NCBI GenBank assembly: GCA_964547875.1
Contig: CAZJPE010000002.1
Coordinates: 42,130-106,129 of the forward strand
Source of the DNA: Candidatus Woesearchaeota archaeon
GTDB taxonomy: Archaea > Nanobdellota > Nanobdellia > Pacearchaeales > GW2011-AR1
Reading direction: 5' to 3'
Length of the DNA: 64,000 nt
This document shows, in pieces, positions 5,028 to 60,680 of this stretch. Below the pieces are notes generated by a model. That model searched no databases, was not told the origin of the DNA, and was given only the letters and a program-made list of their open reading frames with translations. Position 1 is the first letter of the stretch. Each line of letters opens with the position of its first letter. The position numbers and the translations under genes were made by a program.

Positions 5028-6232
5028 TGTTAAAGATAAACAAAAACCTAGTAAAGGGAAGTTTTATTTTATTGATAGCGTTTGGGTTATTTAATTTCTT
5101 TCAGTTTTTGTTTCAGCTTTTCATGGCCCGCATGCTTAGTGTCTCTGATTATGGGATATTGGCGAGCTTATTTGCCATCATCTACATTTTTCTTATATTT
5201 ACTGAATCTGTCCAGACAATTATGACAAAGTATTCTGCCAGCGAAAATAATAAAGGCAAATTGAAAAGTCTTCTTAAAAAGGCGTCGCATAAGGCTTTTT
5301 TTGTTGCATTGTATCTATTTGTTTTTTATATTATTCTCGCAATTCCTCTATCTTTTATATTAAGGATAGATTATTCTTTGCTAATTCTCAATGGATTGAT
5401 TATATTCATTGCCTTTTTTATGCCTATAAACCGAGGGTTGATGCAGGGGAAAGAGAGATTTAAATCGCTTGGCTTAAATTTAATTATCGAGGCTATTGGA
5501 AAATTAATTTTTGGCGTATTGCTTGTTTATGTCGGATTCAAAGTTTATGGCGCAATAATCGGCGTTGTGCTTGGAGGAATTTTAGCTTTTGCTTTTTCAT
5601 TTTCACAATTGCGCGACATAATAAAGGAGAAAGAAGAAAATGTAAAAACTCTTGGTATTTATGATTATGCCAAACCTGCTTTTATTATAACATCTATGAT
5701 AATTGTTTTTTATAGTTTAGACATGATAATGGCCAGGATTTTCTTTTCTCCCGAAATAGCTGGCTCTTACGCTATTGCTTCTATTCTGGGCAAAATAATT
5801 CTCTGGGGGACATTGCCTATAAGCAAGGCAATGTTTCCTATGTCTGCAGACATTGGGAATAGAAAGAAAGCTGGAAATGTATTTGCAAACGCATTAGCTA
5901 TTCTTCTATTAGGGATAGTTGCGATACTTATAATATTTTACTTATTCCCTAATTTTATAATAAAAATATTCTCCGGAAAGATAGTTCCTGAAGCAATATC
6001 AATTTTATTTTATCTGGGCATAGCATTTAGTTTTATTGCTCTGGCAAATTTGATTTTATTATATAAATTATCCTTGGGAAGAGTTAAGGGCTATGCTTAT
6101 TTAATTATCTTTGTAATTATTGAAATATTTCTATTGTGGTTTTTTTCAGGGAATTTATTTCAGTTTTCAGTTGCATTTATTACAGCTTCTGCTGCTTTTC
6201 TTTGGGGAAGTATTGTGCTGATTAGGGATTAA
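5027..6232 (+). CDS. Wzx/RfbX-type oligosaccharide flippase (polysaccharide biosynthesis protein family, AglR-like)
   Basis: 401 aa with about 12 TM helices. N-terminus typical of the Wzx family (LVKGSFILLIAF...ARMLSVSDYGIL). Start codon overlaps the previous stop. Confidence 0.65.
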   Translation: MLKINKNLVKGSFILLIAFGLFNFFQFLFQLFMARMLSVSDYGILASLFAIIYIFLIFTESVQTIMTKYSASENNKGKLKSLLKKASHKAFFVALYLFVFYIILAIPLSFILRIDYSLLILNGLIIFIAFFMPINRGLMQGKERFKSLGLNLIIEAIGKLIFGVLLVYVGFKVYGAIIGVVLGGILAFAFSFSQLRDIIKEKEENVKTLGIYDYAKPAFIITSMIIVFYSLDMIMARIFFSPEIAGSYAIASILGKIILWGTLPISKAMFPMSADIGNRKKAGNVFANALAILLLGIVAILIIFYLFPNFIIKIFSGKIVPEAISILFYLGIAFSFIALANLILLYKLSLGRVKGYAYLIIFVIIEIFLLWFFSGNLFQFSVAFITASAAFLWGSIVLIRD

Positions 6233-39121: not shown

Positions 39122-40810
39122 ATGAAGAGAATAAGTTTGGAAGAGACGAGCAGGCTGTTGAAGAAAAAGACTGCTTTATGCGCTCTTTGGAATTGTGAAG
39201 ACAGGAAAAACTGGCCTTATCAATTAGGATATCTTGTATATAAGGACTTGTTCAAAGAAGTATTTTTATTCGATCCAAAAGCAGAAAGGCTTAGACATGG
39301 CTCAGAAATTATGAAAAATAAGATGTTTGATATTATAAAAAATAAAAAACCTAATTATGCCTTTTTATTACTGGAGGCAAATGACATTAGCTTGGACACG
39401 CTTGAAAAAATAAAAGAGATATCTCCCAATACAAAAACACTTGCTATATTTGGAGATGATGACATTCATTTTGAAACTCGTTCAAGATATTATGCCTTAT
39501 TTCTTGATTACTGCATATTTTGCCCGATAAAATATTTATCTTCTTATAGAAATGATGGGATTATGAATTCCCTGCCTTTTGCAGGAGGAGTAAATACAGA
39601 AAATTTTAAGCCTTTGAAGCTTGAGAAAAAATATGATGTTGTATGTATTGGAAAGCCTGTGCCTGCGTCAAGAGCTGAGGCAATAAGATTCTTAATTAAA
39701 AATGGAATTAAAGTAAATATCTGGGGCTATGGATGGGACAACTATCCTGAATTTAAGGAAGTATACGGCGGACCGCTTGAACATAACGAGATGGTTAAAG
39801 TAATAAATCAAACTAAGATTTATCTTGGATTTTGCAAGAATAAACTGGGCGAGGCGCATAATACTGGAAAATTCTTTGAAAGCGCTGCGTGTGGAACATT
39901 TTGCCTTGTTGATGAATTTCCTGAATATCAAGAATATTTCAATAATAATGAAATAGTTAATTTCAGCGACAATAATGATTTGCTGAATAAAGCAAGATAT
40001 TATTTGAAAAATGAAAAAGAAAGAGAGAGAATTGCAAGAAACGCACATAAGAAAACAATCAAAAATCATAGCTATCATATGATTTATAGAAAAATTTTCC
40101 AGAGAATTTTTATGATGGAAGATTCTAAGACTCTTCTTAAGCTTGACAATAAAGTTATACGGCTTTCAGAAGAAGACATGAATCTTGATTATTCTTCTAT
40201 TGAAGAAAAATTAAAAGATTATTCTTATGTTTGCTTTTCTGAAGGAAAATCCTTAATACATAAGCATAAAAATTTCCTTCAAGCTTATTCTTTGGAAAAA
40301 ACTGGAAAAGACATAAGCTGCTGCGATTATTTTGTATTTTCTCAAGGAATTGGGAGATATCTTAAATCAGATGCATTTAGGGCTTCCTTAAATGTAAAGA
40401 AAGAAGAATTCAACAAATTGCTGAATATTAATCAGATAATGCTAAGAAAAGAATATTTTATGAGGCATTTTGATAGTTTCAAGAAATTTTATAATCTTGG
40501 CGAGATAAACATAATTGACAAAGATAATGTCGCCTTTATAGAAATTCCTTTAGTGCAAATAAACAGATTGAATAAGATTAGCAAAGACTGCCTATATAAT
40601 CTGGATTCTGTCTCTCTTGAAAATTCATTTCAGTTTAGGTTCATGTTTGAACTTTATTTGCTTTTATATCAAAAAAGACTGCTATTTAATAAATATCTAT
40701 ATAGGCTCGTGATTGAATCTATTATGAAATGGGATACTTTTATTTTAAAATATTTATTTAATTCTCTTTTTAACAAGGAAAAGCGGCTTAGAATCAAAAA
40801 CCTAATTTAA
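39122..40810 (+). CDS. CgeB-like glycosyltransferase (DUF3880 + Glyco_trans_1_2 architecture)
   Basis: 562 aa. The central region (KIYLGF...NTGKFFESAACGTFCLVDEFPEYQEYF...LLNKARYYLKNEKERERIARNAHK) matches the CgeB/YkvP family. Confidence 0.5.
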   Translation: MKRISLEETSRLLKKKTALCALWNCEDRKNWPYQLGYLVYKDLFKEVFLFDPKAERLRHGSEIMKNKMFDIIKNKKPNYAFLLLEANDISLDTLEKIKEISPNTKTLAIFGDDDIHFETRSRYYALFLDYCIFCPIKYLSSYRNDGIMNSLPFAGGVNTENFKPLKLEKKYDVVCIGKPVPASRAEAIRFLIKNGIKVNIWGYGWDNYPEFKEVYGGPLEHNEMVKVINQTKIYLGFCKNKLGEAHNTGKFFESAACGTFCLVDEFPEYQEYFNNNEIVNFSDNNDLLNKARYYLKNEKERERIARNAHKKTIKNHSYHMIYRKIFQRIFMMEDSKTLLKLDNKVIRLSEEDMNLDYSSIEEKLKDYSYVCFSEGKSLIHKHKNFLQAYSLEKTGKDISCCDYFVFSQGIGRYLKSDAFRASLNVKKEEFNKLLNINQIMLRKEYFMRHFDSFKKFYNLGEINIIDKDNVAFIEIPLVQINRLNKISKDCLYNLDSVSLENSFQFRFMFELYLLLYQKRLLFNKYLYRLVIESIMKWDTFILKYLFNSLFNKEKRLRIKNLI

Positions 40811-55109: not shown

Positions 55110-55805
55110 ATGGATTATAAAGTGTGTATTTTGGCTGCGGGAATAGGGAGTAGAATGCTTGAATTTACAAAAACCTTTAATAAGGTTTTACTTCCTATTC
55201 AAGGAAAGCCTGTTATTTGCCATATAATTGAAAAATTTCCTGAAAATATTGGGATTATTATAGCTGTTGGATACAAAAAAGAAGGAGTTATTGATTATTT
55301 GAAAACTGCTTATCCAAATAGAAAATTTAATTTTGTAAACGTGGGCAAATACGAAGGTGTTGGAACTGGCCCTGGATATTCTTTACTAAAATGCAAAGAA
55401 TATTTACAATGCCCATTTATTCAGTTTGCCGGGGATACATTAGTAAGGGAAGAAATTCCTTTCCCTAACAAAAACTGGTTTGGCGTTGCAGACGTTAAAA
55501 ATACTGAGAGATTTTGCTCTGTAAAGATTATGGGCGATAAAATAATAAGAATTGACGATAAAATAAAGAATGATAATAAACATGCTTTTATTGGCTTAGC
55601 TGGAATAAAGGATTATGACATTTTTTGGAGCGCATTGGAGAAAGATAAAAAATTTATTGCAGAGGAGTTACAAGTTTCTAATGGGTTTAGAGAACTGATA
55701 AATAAGGATTTACACTCTAAAAGATTTACATGGTTTGACACTGGAACATGGGAAGCTTATGATTATACGATAAAAAATTATCCAGATGGAGAATCTTATT
55801 CTTAG
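55110..55805 (+). CDS. Sugar-phosphate nucleotidyltransferase (LicC/MurU-like), short paralog
   Basis: MDYKVCILAAGIGSRM... Homologous along its whole length to the N-terminal half of 59037..60680, and the first 34 nt are identical. The ORF track starts at 55095. Confidence 0.7.
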   Translation: MDYKVCILAAGIGSRMLEFTKTFNKVLLPIQGKPVICHIIEKFPENIGIIIAVGYKKEGVIDYLKTAYPNRKFNFVNVGKYEGVGTGPGYSLLKCKEYLQCPFIQFAGDTLVREEIPFPNKNWFGVADVKNTERFCSVKIMGDKIIRIDDKIKNDNKHAFIGLAGIKDYDIFWSALEKDKKFIAEELQVSNGFRELINKDLHSKRFTWFDTGTWEAYDYTIKNYPDGESYS

Positions 55806-55859
55806 AGATTAAAGCATAAAAATATTTATAAACAATAATTGTAAATTTAATTAAATAAA

Positions 55860-56336
55860 ATGATAAAAAATTTTGTTTTGGACGTTGATGGCGTTATGAC
55901 GACAGGGCATTTTATTTATTCGGCAGAAGGAAAAGCGCTTAAGATTTTCGGACCTCATGACGCAGATGGATTGAAATTGCTCAAAGACAAATTGAACGTA
56001 TCTTTCATAACTGCTGACAAAAAAGGATTTGCCATATCAAAGAAGAGAATAGAAGACTTAGGTTTTCAAATTGAACTCATTTCTGAGCAAGACAGATATA
56101 ATTATGTCAAGGAAAAATTCGGATTTGAAAATACTGCATTCATGGGCGATGGAATCTTTGACGCTCAATTAATCAAGGATTGCAAATTTGGTATAGCTCC
56201 TGCAAATGCCAGGCCAGAGGCGAGAGAAGCAGCAGATTTTATTACGCCATCAAAATCTGCCGAAGGAGCAGTGTGCGATGCGTGCTTGGAGATAAAAAAG
56301 AGATTTTTAGATAAAGCAGAAGACAATAATGCTTAA
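55860..56336 (+). CDS. KdsC-family HAD phosphatase (sugar-acid phosphate phosphatase-like)
   Basis: 158 aa. LDVDGVMTTG, ITADKK and FMGDGIFDAQL fit the YrbI/KdsC subfamily. Confidence 0.75.
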   Translation: MIKNFVLDVDGVMTTGHFIYSAEGKALKIFGPHDADGLKLLKDKLNVSFITADKKGFAISKKRIEDLGFQIELISEQDRYNYVKEKFGFENTAFMGDGIFDAQLIKDCKFGIAPANARPEAREAADFITPSKSAEGAVCDACLEIKKRFLDKAEDNNA

Positions 56337-56348
56337 ATATACAAAATA

Positions 56349-57149
56349 ATGATTCTCGCAATGGAATTATCCTTAATAGACAAGACTGAAAGATATAGGT
56401 TTGAAAAAATAGAAAGAAATCCTGATTATTTCCATGAAAGAAAGGAATTTTCCACAGTAGATGAAATAAGAACTTTATTTTTGCATTATGGAAGTCTAGG
56501 AATTAATGTTGAATCAAATGGAAAGAAAAATATGTATGCTTTAAAAGCGGGCGAAGGTTTTATATTTGGACCGAATTTAAGATATAACTTATCCTGCGAT
56601 TCTAGGATTTTTGCAGTGCAATCTAGCTCTCAAATTGCAGAAGGTAAAATAATTGAGATTTTAGACAAAGGAGATGAAAAAGAGGAATCTGAATTGGGCC
56701 CGTTTAAGCTGGTTAGAAATCCAAAAAGAGTGAATAAACCTTGGGGGCATGAATTATGGATCAGCTGGTTTAGAGACTATCATGTTTTAAAGCAGATAGG
56801 CATGAAGGCAGGAAATATGTCAAGTTTGCAGCTACACGGACGCAAATTAGAAACTAATTATCTAGTTAAAGGGGAGGCAGACGTTATAGATGGCTATCCT
56901 ATGGATTTGAGCTTGAGCGAGGACGAGATGAAAAATAAAATAGGCGATGTTGATTTGTCTGAATATACTAACAGGAAAAAAGCAGGAATGCATTGGACTT
57001 CTCGTCCAGGAATTGTGCATAGAGTAATTTCTGTTGCAGATTATATTGCTTATGAGACATCAACGCCTGAATTAGATGATGTTATAAGACTTAGTGATGT
57101 TTCTGGAAGGCAGTCTGGAAGGATAGACTCAGAGCATAAATTGTCTTAG
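56349..57149 (+). CDS. Cupin-domain protein (type II PMI-like)
   Basis: 266 aa. NKPWGHELWIS...SSLQLHGRKLETNYLVKGEADV. Confidence 0.55.
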   Translation: MILAMELSLIDKTERYRFEKIERNPDYFHERKEFSTVDEIRTLFLHYGSLGINVESNGKKNMYALKAGEGFIFGPNLRYNLSCDSRIFAVQSSSQIAEGKIIEILDKGDEKEESELGPFKLVRNPKRVNKPWGHELWISWFRDYHVLKQIGMKAGNMSSLQLHGRKLETNYLVKGEADVIDGYPMDLSLSEDEMKNKIGDVDLSEYTNRKKAGMHWTSRPGIVHRVISVADYIAYETSTPELDDVIRLSDVSGRQSGRIDSEHKLS

Positions 57150-57181
57150 AAGAATACCATATAGGTAGAATGATAACGTAT

Positions 57182-57276
57182 GACATTTACAGAAGTCGCT
57201 CACCAAAATTGAAATTATAAAATAAGTGAGCGATTTGGGCTGAGGACTTGCAAAGTCCGAACCTGTAAATGTCTGT
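57182..57276. other. GC-elevated structured intergenic element with nested inverted repeats (candidate small RNA or mobile-element end)
   Basis: Outer stem gacatttacag / ctgtaaatgtc (11 bp), inner stem agtcgctcac / gtgagcga, and a local hairpin ggacttgcaaagtcc. I could not fold it as a tRNA. Confidence 0.25.
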
Positions 57277-57347
57277 TAAGTGATGTTTTCGTAAGAAAAA
57301 GTGCAATGTCACAAGCGAAGCGCAGAGTGCCTGCAACTATTATTTTC

Positions 57348-57361
57348 ATGGGTCGGCTCGC
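57348..57361. repeat. Left copy of a perfect 14-bp GC-rich inverted repeat (atgggtcggctcgc)
   Basis: The reverse complement, gcgagccgacccat, occurs at 58505..58518. Confidence 0.6.
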
Positions 57362-57884
57362 CCTTTTTATCAAAGAAAAGTTTAAAAGGTATCTTCTATA
57401 GGGAAAAATATGAAAAACGAAATATTACGTGGAGAATATAGAGAACCTTGGGTATTATAGTTATAATCATAAAATAGTTGATCCTGACTACCTTAAGATA
57501 AAGCAAAGAGGTATAAATGGAGAGATTGGTAAGCATCCTGATTTTAATTTTAAAAAATTTACCAAAAATCAACATAAAATGATTGAAGAAATTTTAAGAG
57601 AAATGCCAATAAGTCTGCAAGCAAAAGAGGTTGAAACTGGAAAAAGAAAGAGAAATGCAAGATAAACCAGTAGGATATGGAGAATCTTTTATTGTTAATG
57701 ATAGAACTTTTATTAACCCATATGGGAATGAAGTAGAAGTGTACTATCTAATGCTTAGTAGAAAAAGCTCCTTAGGAAATGATGTATTCAGAACTATTGA
57801 ATTGCATCTTGGTGTGCCACGCTCAGATTTTTTTGACTTCTAAATCACCAGAAACCTTAAATACTTACATTTCTTACAAGTAAT

Positions 57885-58145
57885 ATGCGAGAAGAAATAA
57901 GGGAAATAAGAACTGTGAAAATAACAAGAAAGGGACAGATAAGTATTCCCTCAGCGGTCAGAGCGAGAGCTGGTTTTGAAGAAGGCGCAAAGGTTAATGT
58001 TATTGCCTACGATGATAGAGTTGAATTAAGACCTATGAAAAAAGAAAAAATTAGTGAAGCTATGATGTGCTATATAATGTCAGAAGAAGCTTTAGCAAAA
58101 AATTGGGATACTCCAGAAGAGGATGAAGCATGGAAAGACTTGTGA
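57885..58145 (+). CDS. AbrB/MazE-family antitoxin (SpoVT_AbrB swapped-hairpin domain)
   Basis: 86 aa. KITRKGQISIPSAVRARAGFEEGAKV, with an acidic C-terminus. Overlaps the downstream toxin gene. Confidence 0.6.
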   Translation: MREEIREIRTVKITRKGQISIPSAVRARAGFEEGAKVNVIAYDDRVELRPMKKEKISEAMMCYIMSEEALAKNWDTPEEDEAWKDL

Positions 58146-58462
58146 AGGGAGATGTTGTTGTTTTAGACTTTCCATATACAGATTTATCAAAAACTAAAAA
58201 GAGACCAAGTCTTATTGTTGCTAATTTGAAAGGAGATAATATTATTCTTTGTCAAATTACTGGGCAACCAAGACCTGACCCTGATTTGATTAATCTGAAA
58301 AAAGAAGATTTCCAGACTGGTGGTTTGCATAGAGAGAGTTTTATAATGTCCTCTTTTTTATTTACGATTCACAAGTCAAAAATCAATTATGCGGCTGGAA
58401 AAATCAAGCAAGAAAAAATAGAAGAAGTTGAAAAGAAACTTTGTGAGATTTTTACAAGATAA
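58130..58462 (+). CDS. MazF/PemK-family toxin (endoribonuclease)
   Basis: 110 aa. GDVVVLDFPYTDLSKTKKRPSLIVAN...ILCQITGQ matches the MazF N-terminal signature. Confidence 0.65.
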   Translation: MERLVKGDVVVLDFPYTDLSKTKKRPSLIVANLKGDNIILCQITGQPRPDPDLINLKKEDFQTGGLHRESFIMSSFLFTIHKSKINYAAGKIKQEKIEEVEKKLCEIFTR

Positions 58463-58504
58463 GTTTCTTGCTGAAAGCGAAACTATTTGTGGCGTCAGCC
58501 ACTT

Positions 58505-58518
58505 GCGAGCCGACCCAT
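58505..58518. repeat. Right copy of the 14-bp inverted repeat (gcgagccgacccat)
   Basis: Perfect reverse complement of 57348..57361. 10 of 14 positions are G/C in a genome of about 30% GC. Confidence 0.6.
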
Positions 58519-58634
58519 ATTTATCCTTGTAGGTATTTCACTTAACTATGGTTAAGAATAAAAGGATAAAAAGAAAATGGCATTGATTATTTTGGTTAAT
58601 ATTATTAATAATCTTAATTTATGTTTTATATAAA

Positions 58635-58952
58635 TTACTTCAATAAAAATCTCTTCTTCCAATCAAATACGGTTTTTCTTGTTATTTTGACCTTAAAAGT
58701 ATGATTTAGATAAAGGGTTATATTGCCAAGACTGGTTTTCTTTTTCAATAACTCGAGAGCTGTTTTAATCATTGCTGGCGGATAACGGAATTTTTTAAAC
58801 ATTCCGGGAGTAAATCTTCTTTTACATTTCCTGCATTTATATATTTGTTTTATGGAATTAAGGTTTTTTCTTAGCTGTATAACATAAGTATCATTAGAGG
58901 CACAATAAAGGCAAGACATTAGATATTCTGATTGAATAGATAAATCTTTCAT
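58635..58952 (-). mobile_element. IS1 InsA-like / IS1595-like transposase N-terminal zinc-ribbon plus HTH ORF (probable IS remnant)
   Basis: 105 aa. CLYCASND...KQIYKCRKCKRRFT follows the CxxC-x(n)-QRYxCxxCxxxF InsA pattern, then an HTH. No catalytic transposase ORF lies next to it. Confidence 0.45.
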
Positions 58953-59036: not shown

Positions 59037-60680
59037 ATGGATTATAAAGTGTGTATTTTGGCTGCGGGAAAAAATACAAATGTTAGTTATGCGAGAGATT
59101 TTCATATAAGTTTATTGCCTGTAGGGACAAAATCAGCATTAACTAGGATTATTGAAAAGTTCCCTTTAAATGTAGAGATAATAATTGCTGTGGGATATAA
59201 TAGCCATTTGATAAAAGATTTCAGTGATATAACTTTTTCTAATAGGAAGATTAGAATTGTAGAAATTGATAATTATTCAGGGCCCGGTAGTGGACCTGGG
59301 AGAACACTTTTAGCATGTAAGTCACATCTAAACTGCCCATTTATATTCACTGCCGCCGACACGATAGTAGGAGATGAAATTCCAATCCCTAATAAAAACT
59401 GGATTGGTATATCGCATGTTTCTGATTCAACGAATTATTGTGTCGCTGAAGTAGAAAATAGTAATGTAACAAAGTTCTATGATAAAATGGAAACTTCTAT
59501 CTTATTAAAAGCATGTAAAAACTACAGAACAATTTTAAACAACGCTTTTATTGGCATTGCTGGCGTTCTTGATTATAATGTTTTCTGGAAAGAGATTGAG
59601 AGAGACCAGCATCTCATAAAAAAAGAGCTGCAAGTTTCTAATGGCCTTGCAGGGTTAATTCCGCATAAGCTTGAGGCAATATCATTCTTTAATTGGTTTG
59701 ATATAGGAAATGAGACAGGATATAATTTTGCGAACAGATTCTTTGAGAAAAACAAGATTATAGCAAAACCAGAAGAATTTATTTATTTTGAGGATAGAAA
59801 AGTAATAAAATATTTTTCAGATAAGGAGATAGTAAGGGAGAGAATAAATAGGGCATCAAAATTAAAAAATATTGTTCCCGAGATTATTCAATCCAAGGAT
59901 AATTTTTACGCTTATGATTTTGTCGAAGGAGAGACACTGGCAAAAATTAATGATATAAGCATATTCAAACAATTCTTAGATTTCTGCAAAGAAACAATAT
60001 GGAAAAGAGCAAACTTAAACGCAGAAGAGATGTCAGATTTCAAGAGCCTGTGCATTAACTTTTATAGACATAAGACCTTAGAGAGAATTCAAAAGTTTTT
60101 CAGGGAAAGCGATATTAAGGATAAAGAGGAAATAATTAACGGAGAGAAAGTCCTGACATTGGGAGAAATGCTAAGAGAGATAGACTGGAAAAAAATTTCA
60201 GAAGGCGTACCTGTTGTCTTTCACGGGGATTTACAGCCTGAAAATATAATTGTCTGTGATAAAGGATTCCAATTAATTGACTGGAGGCACAGCTTTGCAG
60301 GCAATGTAGACTATGGGGATATTTATTACGATTTTGCAAAGTTGCATCATGCTCTTATTGTTACCCATGAAATTATAAGAAATAATCAATTTGAAATAAA
60401 AAGAGATAAGAATTACGTGAATTATGATTTTTTGAGAAAAAACAATTTGATGGAATACAAAGACGTTCTTGAGAATTTTATAGAAAAAGAAGGATATGAC
60501 TTAAAAAGATTGAATATATTGACTTCATTGATATACTTAAATATTGCGCCCCTGCACCATTACCCATACAACGAGTTTCTTTATTATCTTGGCAAATATT
60601 CTTTGTTTAAGGAGATGAATAACAATAATCCTTATATAATAAAAAATCAGCAATTAACAGTTAAGATTCAGGACAGATAA
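59037..60680 (+). CDS. Bifunctional sugar-phosphate nucleotidyltransferase plus APH/choline-kinase-fold kinase (AmgK-MurU-like or LicC-LicA-like fusion)
   Basis: 547 aa. The N-terminal 230 aa are paralogous to 55110..55805. C-terminal HGDLQPENIIV and LIDWRHSFAGNVDYGDIYYDFA motifs (Brenner and IDWE-like). Confidence 0.7.
   Translation: MDYKVCILAAGKNTNVSYARDFHISLLPVGTKSALTRIIEKFPLNVEIIIAVGYNSHLIKDFSDITFSNRKIRIVEIDNYSGPGSGPGRTLLACKSHLNCPFIFTAADTIVGDEIPIPNKNWIGISHVSDSTNYCVAEVENSNVTKFYDKMETSILLKACKNYRTILNNAFIGIAGVLDYNVFWKEIERDQHLIKKELQVSNGLAGLIPHKLEAISFFNWFDIGNETGYNFANRFFEKNKIIAKPEEFIYFEDRKVIKYFSDKEIVRERINRASKLKNIVPEIIQSKDNFYAYDFVEGETLAKINDISIFKQFLDFCKETIWKRANLNAEEMSDFKSLCINFYRHKTLERIQKFFRESDIKDKEEIINGEKVLTLGEMLREIDWKKISEGVPVVFHGDLQPENIIVCDKGFQLIDWRHSFAGNVDYGDIYYDFAKLHHALIVTHEIIRNNQFEIKRDKNYVNYDFLRKNNLMEYKDVLENFIEKEGYDLKRLNILTSLIYLNIAPLHHYPYNEFLYYLGKYSLFKEMNNNNPYIIKNQQLTVKIQDR

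Follow-up and report, generated by a model that had tools for sequence, protein, structure and literature searches.

The stretch of DNA analysed here (the window, 64 kb, 32.5% G+C) carries a predicted toxin–antitoxin (TA) gene pair, mazE–mazF, which lies together with the remains of an upstream gene between two GC-rich 14-mers. The left arm, ATGGGTCGGCTCGC, occupies positions 57348–57361 of the forward strand and the right arm, GCGAGCCGACCCAT, positions 58505–58518; 1143 nt separate them, and each is the exact reverse complement of the other, as had been stated in an earlier note made from the letters of the window. The antitoxin gene, mazE (57885–58145, +), encodes an 86-aa protein of the AbrB/SpoVT fold (PF04014, E = 1e-9; TIGR01439, E = 5e-13), and mazF (58130–58462, +) encodes a 110-aa MazF/PemK toxin (PF02452, E = 6e-12). 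The two genes overlap by 16 nt, and with PF04014 and PF02452 matches above the cut-offs they are predicted to form a type II MazEF system, in agreement with the MazE/MazF-like pair of the note. On the left, the segment is preceded by an attC-like hairpin of 111 nt, h1 (57171–57281, +). We compared this locus with contigs and loci fetched from related genomes, which are designated by L-numbers. The reading that we favour, and to which we assign a probability of about 0.5, is that the segment is an integron-like cassette, the ends of which are two halves of an extended palindromic recombination site.

The window contained eight perfect 14-nt inverted pairs within 3 kb, as compared to about four expected from its composition. 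All the others were A+T-rich, and the pair described above was the sole GC-rich one. Only 1.9e-4 14-mers with at least 10 G+C and a perfect inverted partner within 3 kb would be expected per window, so that the pair is real and not a chance match, which the note had also judged unlikely. Extending it as plain DNA identity gave nothing significant. However, a second, collinear pairing of 12 bp was found between 57325–57336 (GAGTGCCTGCAA) and 58527–58538 (TTGTAGGTATTT), with 8 Watson–Crick and 4 G·T pairs, and we refer to these two sequences as the middle block. The 14-bp helix of the arms is free of bulges. Another perfect 14-nt inverted pair of the window, AGATATCTCCCAAT, has a moderate G+C content and lies at 39417–39430 and 40349–40362 (932 nt apart), within or around a 562-aa open reading frame (ORF; 39122–40810).

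Copies with both arms were found outside the window in L196, a Nanoarchaeota metagenome-assembled genome, and in L212. As a sole query the 14-mer was too short for collection scans and returned only single random matches; L196 was reached, as one of three DPANN loci, by scanning a pattern from the post-mazF sequence over species-representative genomes, and L212 was reached via a MazF homologue. The arms pair at 14/14 positions in the window, at 12/14 in L212, and through 11 Watson–Crick and 1 G·T of 14 in L196, while the middle blocks of the same three copies, G·T counted, pair at 12/12, 12/12 and 11/12. Thus, of the copies of the pair envisaged in the note, diverged ones (11–12 of 14 pairs) exist in L196 and L212; the 14-mer itself did not occur elsewhere in the window or in 14 related mazEF loci, and no equivalent flanking repeats surrounded the latter.

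The segment lies in a sugar-nucleotide/glycan gene cluster (shikimate-dehydrogenase-like, nucleotidyltransferase, HAD phosphatase, cupin, nucleotidyltransferase-kinase, SIS and transketolase genes). In L136/L137, which have the same cluster, 5 nt separate the cupin gene from the kinase gene behind it, and in L138 the cupin stop codon overlaps the stop codon of a 97-aa Zn-ribbon gene of the opposite strand; the cassette is present in none of them. As these syntenic relatives are without the block, the alignments show the extra sequence of the window relative to L138, 57150–58634, as an insertion into a conserved glycan-gene cluster. It is about 1.5 kb long, as compared to the 1.17 kb between the arms, and sits between two convergent genes. 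The ORF that follows it (58635–58952, −) encodes a 105-aa Zn-ribbon protein and had been described as IS1 InsA-like, yet its score with the IS1 model was 19.5 bits against a cut-off of 100. It is homologous (68% amino acid identity) to the Zn-ribbon gene at the same place in L138, where the insertion is absent, and is therefore a native neighbour, neither an IS1 remnant nor associated with the cassette. This gene is missing from L136. Its product weakly resembles IS1 and IS6 transposases in their N-terminal parts (E ~1e-3) and may represent an N-terminal transposase domain that has been domesticated or is an orphan.

Comparison of the three copies placed the ends of the unit beyond the 14-mers. 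L196 matched the window over 57273–57368 (90.6%, 96 nt) and 57830–58541 (83.5%), and L212 matched it over 57282–58545. The homology between copies starts 75 nt outside the left arm (57273), at CTGTTAAGTG, and runs to about 27 nt beyond the right arm (58541–58546), at CACTTAAC. Because it runs past both arms in L196 and L212, the 14-mers are subterminal, and the unit is shown by these alignments as bounded by inverted GTTAAGT and ACTTAAC boxes; the view that the 14-mers are terminal inverted repeats was not supported. The conserved non-coding 5' end of the cassette, the left unit (57273–57368, +), is shared with L196 and L212 and comprises, in this order, the GTTAAGT box, a TTTTC-GTAA-GAAAA hairpin, the middle block GAGTGCCTGCAA, the left arm and a T-run (57364–57368). 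At the other end, the tail and right unit (58463–58546, +), which are conserved after mazF in relatives, contain two small hairpins (GC-TGAAA-GC within GTTTC/GAAAC, and GTGGC-GTCA-GCCAC) and continue with the right arm, the middle block TTGTAGGTATTT and the ACTTAAC box (58540–58546). In the window, this box is complementary to the GTTAAGT of the 5' end at 7/7 positions; the same comparison gave 4–6/7 in L196 and L141, which is not discriminating. Direct words shared across four candidate boundary pairs were at most 3–4 nt long, so that no target-site duplication was detected, and this agrees with the lack of flanking direct repeats reported in the note. The A+T-rich remainder of the insertion (58547–58634, +), which is absent from L138, folds only weakly and might contain a degenerate hairpin with a GGTTAAGA ... 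TCTTAATT TAT GTTTTAT arrangement. It was considered as a right-hand member of the hairpin family described below, but its similarity to that family was not significant, and we downgraded it to doubtful.

Identity among the three copies is about 87% in the left unit, as compared to 61–74% at the third codon positions of mazEF, and this shows the non-coding sequence to be under constraint. L196 and L212 have an upstream flank in common and are counted as a single context, and the window is a second, independent one. The orientation of the cargo relative to the left and right units is identical in all three. The right unit is kept after mazF in L196, L212, L213–218, L192/L142 (Pacearchaeota RIFCSPHIGHO2_01_FULL_39_44) and L202/L208–211, and partly in L002–L011. 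The right arms of the copies without a left unit are the most diverged (L192, GCAAGCCGACTAGT; L202, ATGAGCCAGCCTTA), that of L202 most of all. A short sequence of L202 (5225–5245, CTGTTAGGCTCGTTTTG) resembles a fusion of the box GTTA, the left-arm end GGCTCG and the T-run, as if the interior of a left unit had been deleted there. Together, the absence of the block from the syntenic site in L136/L137 and L138 and the unit with both arms in L196 and L212 support the non-autonomous mobile TA cassette of the earlier note, which is thus partly supported: right on the mobile cassette, wrong on its ends and on its likely mechanism.

Homologues of the tail and right unit were also found away from mazF. 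In L141, one stands between the stop codon of a 482-aa radical-SAM gene and a hairpin, L141a, directly before the latter; in L202 (5040–5127), another follows a 145-aa ORF and lies directly before a hairpin. In each case, the similarity score was reached by 0/1000 shuffles. As the right arm lies in a sequence that stands behind unrelated genes, it is a part of a repeat and not a transposon end. Moreover, the left unit shares homology over its first 55 nt with what stands immediately behind hairpin L141a (0/1000 shuffles). In L141, tail, hairpin and left unit are contiguous and constitute one composite repeat, which folds as a single long hairpin (z = −5.6). When the two cassette ends of the window were joined in silico, the folding energy was −40.1 kcal/mol, as compared to −17.4 ± 3.0 kcal/mol for shuffles, and the 14-mers formed the basal stem; the joined ends of L196 gave the same topology, though a weaker one (z = −2.8). 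The long-range stem that had been offered as an alternative to mobility stands in this form, with the arms pairing once the cassette ends are joined, in a circle or in a contiguous repeat, but not as a stem of separated arms. In L212, the left arm matched the right arm of its own cassette at 12/14 positions, and an arm-like sequence before the same-side hairpin at only about 8/13. Additionally, h1 lies to the left of the cargo in the window, and its nearest relative, L196 hairpin b, lies to the right. Both observations indicate that the ends of a cassette make up one site, each contributing a half, and the second one points to the window copy as a circular permutation of the L196 copy. Right-unit-like sequence before, or left-unit-like sequence behind, L141 hairpin b and L196 hairpins a and b was not significant.

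The hairpin h1 abuts the left box of the cassette. Its 5' half consists of R'' TGATAAC (57171–57177), a spacer GTAT and L'' GACATTTACAG (57182–57192), and its 3' half of L' CTGTAAATGTC (57263–57273), a spacer T and R' GTTAAGT (57275–57281); the centre is branched, with ATTTGGG and a GGACT-TGCAA-AGTCC sub-hairpin. It folds far more stably than shuffles as single-stranded DNA (z = −5.0), and also as RNA. Other members of the same family were found in L196 (three, co-oriented), L141 (two and a short third, likewise co-oriented) and L145, L192, L163 and L140 (one each, that of L140 decayed). The closest relative of h1, L196 hairpin b, scored 49 with a shuffle maximum of 40, and there is a compensatory change in the L box between the two. 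Among six aligned members, the 11-bp L stem is paired via 2–3 different pair types at most columns, and the outer boxes keep xAAC/GTTx; the TGCAA loop of the sub-hairpin is conserved in the family, and the 3' box matches GTTRRRY in full in 8/11 hairpins. The hairpins are about 104–159 nt long, some of them slightly exceeding the attC criterion of 55–141 nt. Rfam gave no family match, and we found no described Pacearchaeota/DPANN repeat of this kind in the literature.

Several further observations concern these hairpins and arms. Two recurrent sequence types follow hairpins (L141 6923–6945; L196, L192 and L202 just past the GTTRRRY boxes), one left-unit-like (TTTTC-loop-GAAAA ... AAGCGAAGCG) and one YCCCGAACGAAGTGAG-like, which suggests that the hairpin arrays may contain further conserved modules. 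The core of the right arm, (G)AGCCGACC at 58505–58514, equals the L''-adjacent stem sequence of several validated attCs, namely those of aadA7 (AAGCCGAC) and of Thermoplasmatota and Halobacteriota (CAGCCGACC) (PMC9668308 data S10). No canonical R boxes were found at the expected distance from the 14-mer arms, and the match may be a coincidence or a hint of a shared recombinase-binding motif. Finally, a Logan contig (L135; run SRR8863434, 2,088 nt), reached through a homologue and 100% identical to 55114–57201 of the window, stops at 57201, inside h1. This break suggests either repeated hairpin sequence in the genome or presence/absence variation of the cassette in the population. The contig begins exactly at a 30-nt exact direct repeat (55114–55143 and 59041–59070) formed by the starts of two paralogous nucleotidyltransferase genes (MDYKVCILAAG), which suggests an assembly-graph break.

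In the integron-like reading, each 14-mer supplies one of the two matching halves of the basal stem in a single long, interrupted palindromic repeat, which would be intergenic in Pacearchaeota-like DPANN archaea and would run from the tail and right arm through the attC-like hairpin to the left unit, left arm and T-run. The cassette, with its decayed gene and a mazE–mazF pair that has its own putative promoter, would carry half a repeat at each end. Its mobile form would be a circle, with the two ends zipped together as a single extended hairpin and the arms and middle block lengthening the stem of the site. A tyrosine recombinase acting in trans, an integron-integrase or a XerA-like enzyme, would exchange strands at the GTTRRRY/RYYYAAC boxes of the folded hairpin, as in integrons. 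The window copy would have been opened on the R'' side of its hairpin, and the L196 copy on the R' side.

A number of observations weigh against this reading. No tyrosine recombinase gene was found in the 64-kb window, and the recombinase encoded beside the L196 array is of XerA type (NF040815, 241 bits with a cut-off of 220) and falls below the integron-integrase cut-off (201 against 265). A candidate recombinase remnant in L192 was unsupported by tblastn and was withdrawn. Neither a circular nor an empty-site junction was directly observed. Only two clearly independent contexts have both arms, and in L192, L213–218 and L202 the right arm has been kept although a left unit is missing, so that its conservation there is independent of pairing. 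The window has one clear hairpin, and some hairpins of L141 flank housekeeping-looking genes (radical SAM, Ham1), a placement that dispersed intergenic repeats fit as well as cassettes do. The spacers of the hairpins are 3–5 and 1–2 nt, as compared to about 5 and about 6 nt in validated attCs (PMC9668308 data S10). A loose attC scan was non-specific, with shuffles yielding equal matches, and we did not use it as evidence. As the spacers differ, the interior is partly sequence-conserved and our own scan was non-specific, membership of the hairpin family among canonical attCs is not established. One could go further and suppose a DPANN composite recombination site of about 250–320 nt, made of an attC-like hairpin and outer stems from the 3' and 5' ends of the cassette, zipped only in the circle or across an array junction and exchanged by XerA-type recombinases on either side of the R box. 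It would represent a distinct archaeal integron branch, missed by current attC finders; this supposition is tentative, and we consider it unlikely.

The repeat might instead be a transcribed 3'-end element. It would then fold in RNA as a large hairpin with a GC-rich 14-bp stem followed by a U-run and serve as a terminator, insulator or stabiliser, the cassette would merely lie between two partial copies, and the separated arms would act in RNA or not at all. Consistent with that, the tail begins directly past stop codons (of mazF, and of the 482-aa gene of L141), T4–T5 follows the left arm in 3/3 copies, and a T-run follows the right arm in L196, L192 and L212. The non-Watson–Crick positions of the two helices are mostly G·T on the plus (mRNA) strand (9 cells, as compared to one C·A), conservation of the left unit exceeds that of synonymous sites, and some members of the hairpin family stand beside ordinary genes. 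However, pairing of the arms would need a 1.2-kb read-through transcript crossing the left T-run, even though mazEF has a putative promoter of its own. The element also gives no account of the shared unit ending exactly at the GTTAAGT/ACTTAAC boxes, nor of h1 matching a hairpin on the opposite side of the L196 cargo, and it is without a match in Rfam. We regard this explanation as rather unlikely, although an RNA 3'-end role and a recombination-site role could coexist.

We are more doubtful still of a non-autonomous transposon with the 14-mers as its terminal inverted repeats, that is, a mobile insertion cassette or a MITE (miniature inverted-repeat transposable element) with cargo, whose transposase would be encoded elsewhere. 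A perfect GC-rich inverted pair does surround the cargo, the block is an insertion, both arms are retained in two other copies, and IS110-family transposase genes adjoin related mazEF modules in L004 and L007. Yet the copies stay homologous for 75 nt and about 27 nt past the arms, direct repeats were lacking at every candidate boundary, and the right arm is part of the sequence that stands behind unrelated genes. The 14-mer is also missing from the rest of the window and from the 14 related mazEF loci, cargo-less MITE-like copies were not found, no transposase gene is present, and the IS1-like ORF is native.

It is quite improbable that the arms are a neutral relic, left over from two palindromic-repeat copies or from an old inverted duplication and matching perfectly without a present function. 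A relic would fit the persistence of the right arm in copies that have no left unit (L192, L213–218 and L202), the decayed pairing in L196 and L212 and the presence of just one compensatory change in the arms. On the other hand, the 14/14 match has persisted despite 26–39% divergence at the third codon positions of mazEF, the left unit is 87% conserved, and the most diverged right arms are those of copies that lost the left unit (L202, L192). An invertible segment, flipped between the inverted repeats by a site-specific recombinase as in phase variation, beside the glycan cluster, is very improbable: inverted repeats and inverted GTTAAGT boxes do lie within a surface-glycan gene cluster, but the cargo has one orientation in the window, L196 and L212 with no inverted segment among the loci fetched, which leaves inversion unsupported, a recombinase is not encoded in the window, and the segment holds complete genes and not a promoter switch. 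Split tRNA halves or a bulge–helix–bulge stem were rejected, with no tRNA in the window by ARAGORN, no Rfam match even at E <= 10, flanks unlike tRNA halves and a helix without bulges.

The first gene of the cargo is a pseudogene (57410–57843, +), delineated by alignment to an intact 190-aa gene of L212 (245–817). The two small unknown ORFs of the note, 57429–57665 and 57631–57843, turned out to be N- and C-terminal pieces of this one gene (49% and 63% identity, respectively; two blocks in blastn), which in the window contains frameshifts and has lost about 124 nt from its interior. L202 keeps just its last 55 codons (57% identity to the C-terminal piece), and L196 is without it; the 190-aa gene has no Pfam or NCBIfam match. 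A TATA-like sequence, GTTTAAAAGG, lies at 57379–57388. The region before mazE (57830–57884, +) contains a TTAAATA box and a CTTACATTTCTTACAAGTAAG palindrome, which precede mazE in every close copy irrespective of context, and we infer promoter and operator roles for it. MazF homologues with 78–96% identity occur in many Nanoarchaeota/Pacearchaeota (DPANN) contigs, from which the source of the window appears to be a Pacearchaeota-like DPANN archaeon. The mazEF module was found at 80–90% nucleotide identity in at least 10 different contexts and, judging from this distribution, apparently moves, or recombines, freely among these archaea. Besides the L135 contig, exact look-ups gave no record of MazF or cupin ORFs identical to those in the window; the cupin protein as a query in a scan of genome contigs and a small ORF in a word-index search gave no match.

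Some of the related modules differ in their state or neighbourhood. In L192, mazF (5055–5387) has an in-frame stop (CAG to TAA), mazE is seemingly intact and the left unit is missing from the cassette; this mazF appears to be a decaying toxin gene. In L002–L011, a 457-aa gene with Pfam matches to Sigma70 regions 2, 3 and 4 (e.g., L002 4107–5480) adjoins archaeal genes for ribosomal proteins L1, L10 and P1 and mazEF, which is unexpected for an archaeon. L004 and L007 have an IS110-family transposase gene in place of the Sigma70-like one.

If the integron-like reading is true, symbiotic archaea with reduced genomes would swap TA and other genes via sites unlike canonical attC, standard integron finders may miss such sites, and the traffic of cassettes among archaea could be underestimated. 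A concrete substrate, the hairpin in forms with and lacking its 14-bp outer stem, would then also be at hand to find the archaeal recombinase that moves the cassettes. If the repeat is an RNA 3'-end element only, Pacearchaeota would still have in it a conserved family of structured repeats that had not been described before. The annotation of the locus is corrected in either case: one pseudogene replaces two ORFs, the Zn-ribbon gene is native, there is no IS1 remnant, and the cassette has new boundaries.

Some likenesses to other known systems are partial. In Nanoarchaeum, split tRNA genes have 12–14-nt GC-rich complementary leaders that join the tRNA halves. The arms resemble these as a pair of about 14 nt, GC-rich and complementary, in an A+T-rich nanoarchaeal genome, but neither of them adjoins a tRNA or a tRNA half. 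With mobile insertion cassettes and MITEs the unit shares its short, non-autonomous, inserted nature, its inverted repeats and its passenger genes, and it differs from them in having subterminal repeats, no target-site duplications, and neither a cognate transposase nor a multi-copy cargo-less form. Like REP/BIME, ERIC and Correia-type repeats, the composite repeat is a structured palindrome just past stop codons with a possible role at mRNA 3' ends; unlike them, it is much longer and composite (about 250–320 nt), occurs in clustered co-oriented arrays and delimits a unit moved between genomes. The pdif modules of Acinetobacter plasmids are gene modules, often TA ones, bounded by inversely oriented XerC/XerD sites. 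The cassette is similar in its TA cargo between inverted recombinase-type core sites, and in that a Xer-family enzyme is the likely actor (a XerA gene lies beside the L196 array), but no 28-bp dif-like site was identified, the core boxes lie inside hairpins of 110–160 nt, and the setting is archaeal.

Integrons offer the closest comparison. Archaeal integrons and attC clusters without integrase (CALINs), with many TA cassettes, have been described, including in Nanoarchaeota/Pacearchaeales (Ghaly et al. 2022, PMC9668308), and clusters without integrase are common (PMC9668308). As in integron cassettes, the window unit has a TA cargo with a putative promoter. Its 3'-side ACTTAAC exactly complements the GTTAAGT of its 5' end, a comparison that does not discriminate in L196 and L141. 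As in attC, the hairpin is an imperfect palindrome with R and L stems and a boundary GTTRRRY box, the structure of which is kept by compensatory change; in relatives, the hairpins form co-oriented arrays with sites one or two genes apart, as in integrons, and, as in CALINs, an integrase is mostly not nearby. In contrast to attC, the spacers are shorter (3–5/1–2 nt instead of about 5/6), the interior is conserved (ATTTGGG and the TGCAA-loop sub-hairpin), and the repeat runs 40–90 nt past both boxes into the cassette ends, as the 14-mer and 12-mer blocks, which textbook attCs do not. The window copy, unlike integron cassettes, was seemingly opened on the R'' side, and the recombinase next to the L196 array is of XerA type and fails the integron-integrase model. 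Taken together, integron cassettes of archaeal attC clusters are the nearest known kind; this cassette departs from them in its non-canonical hairpin and in having a site that reaches into both cassette ends.

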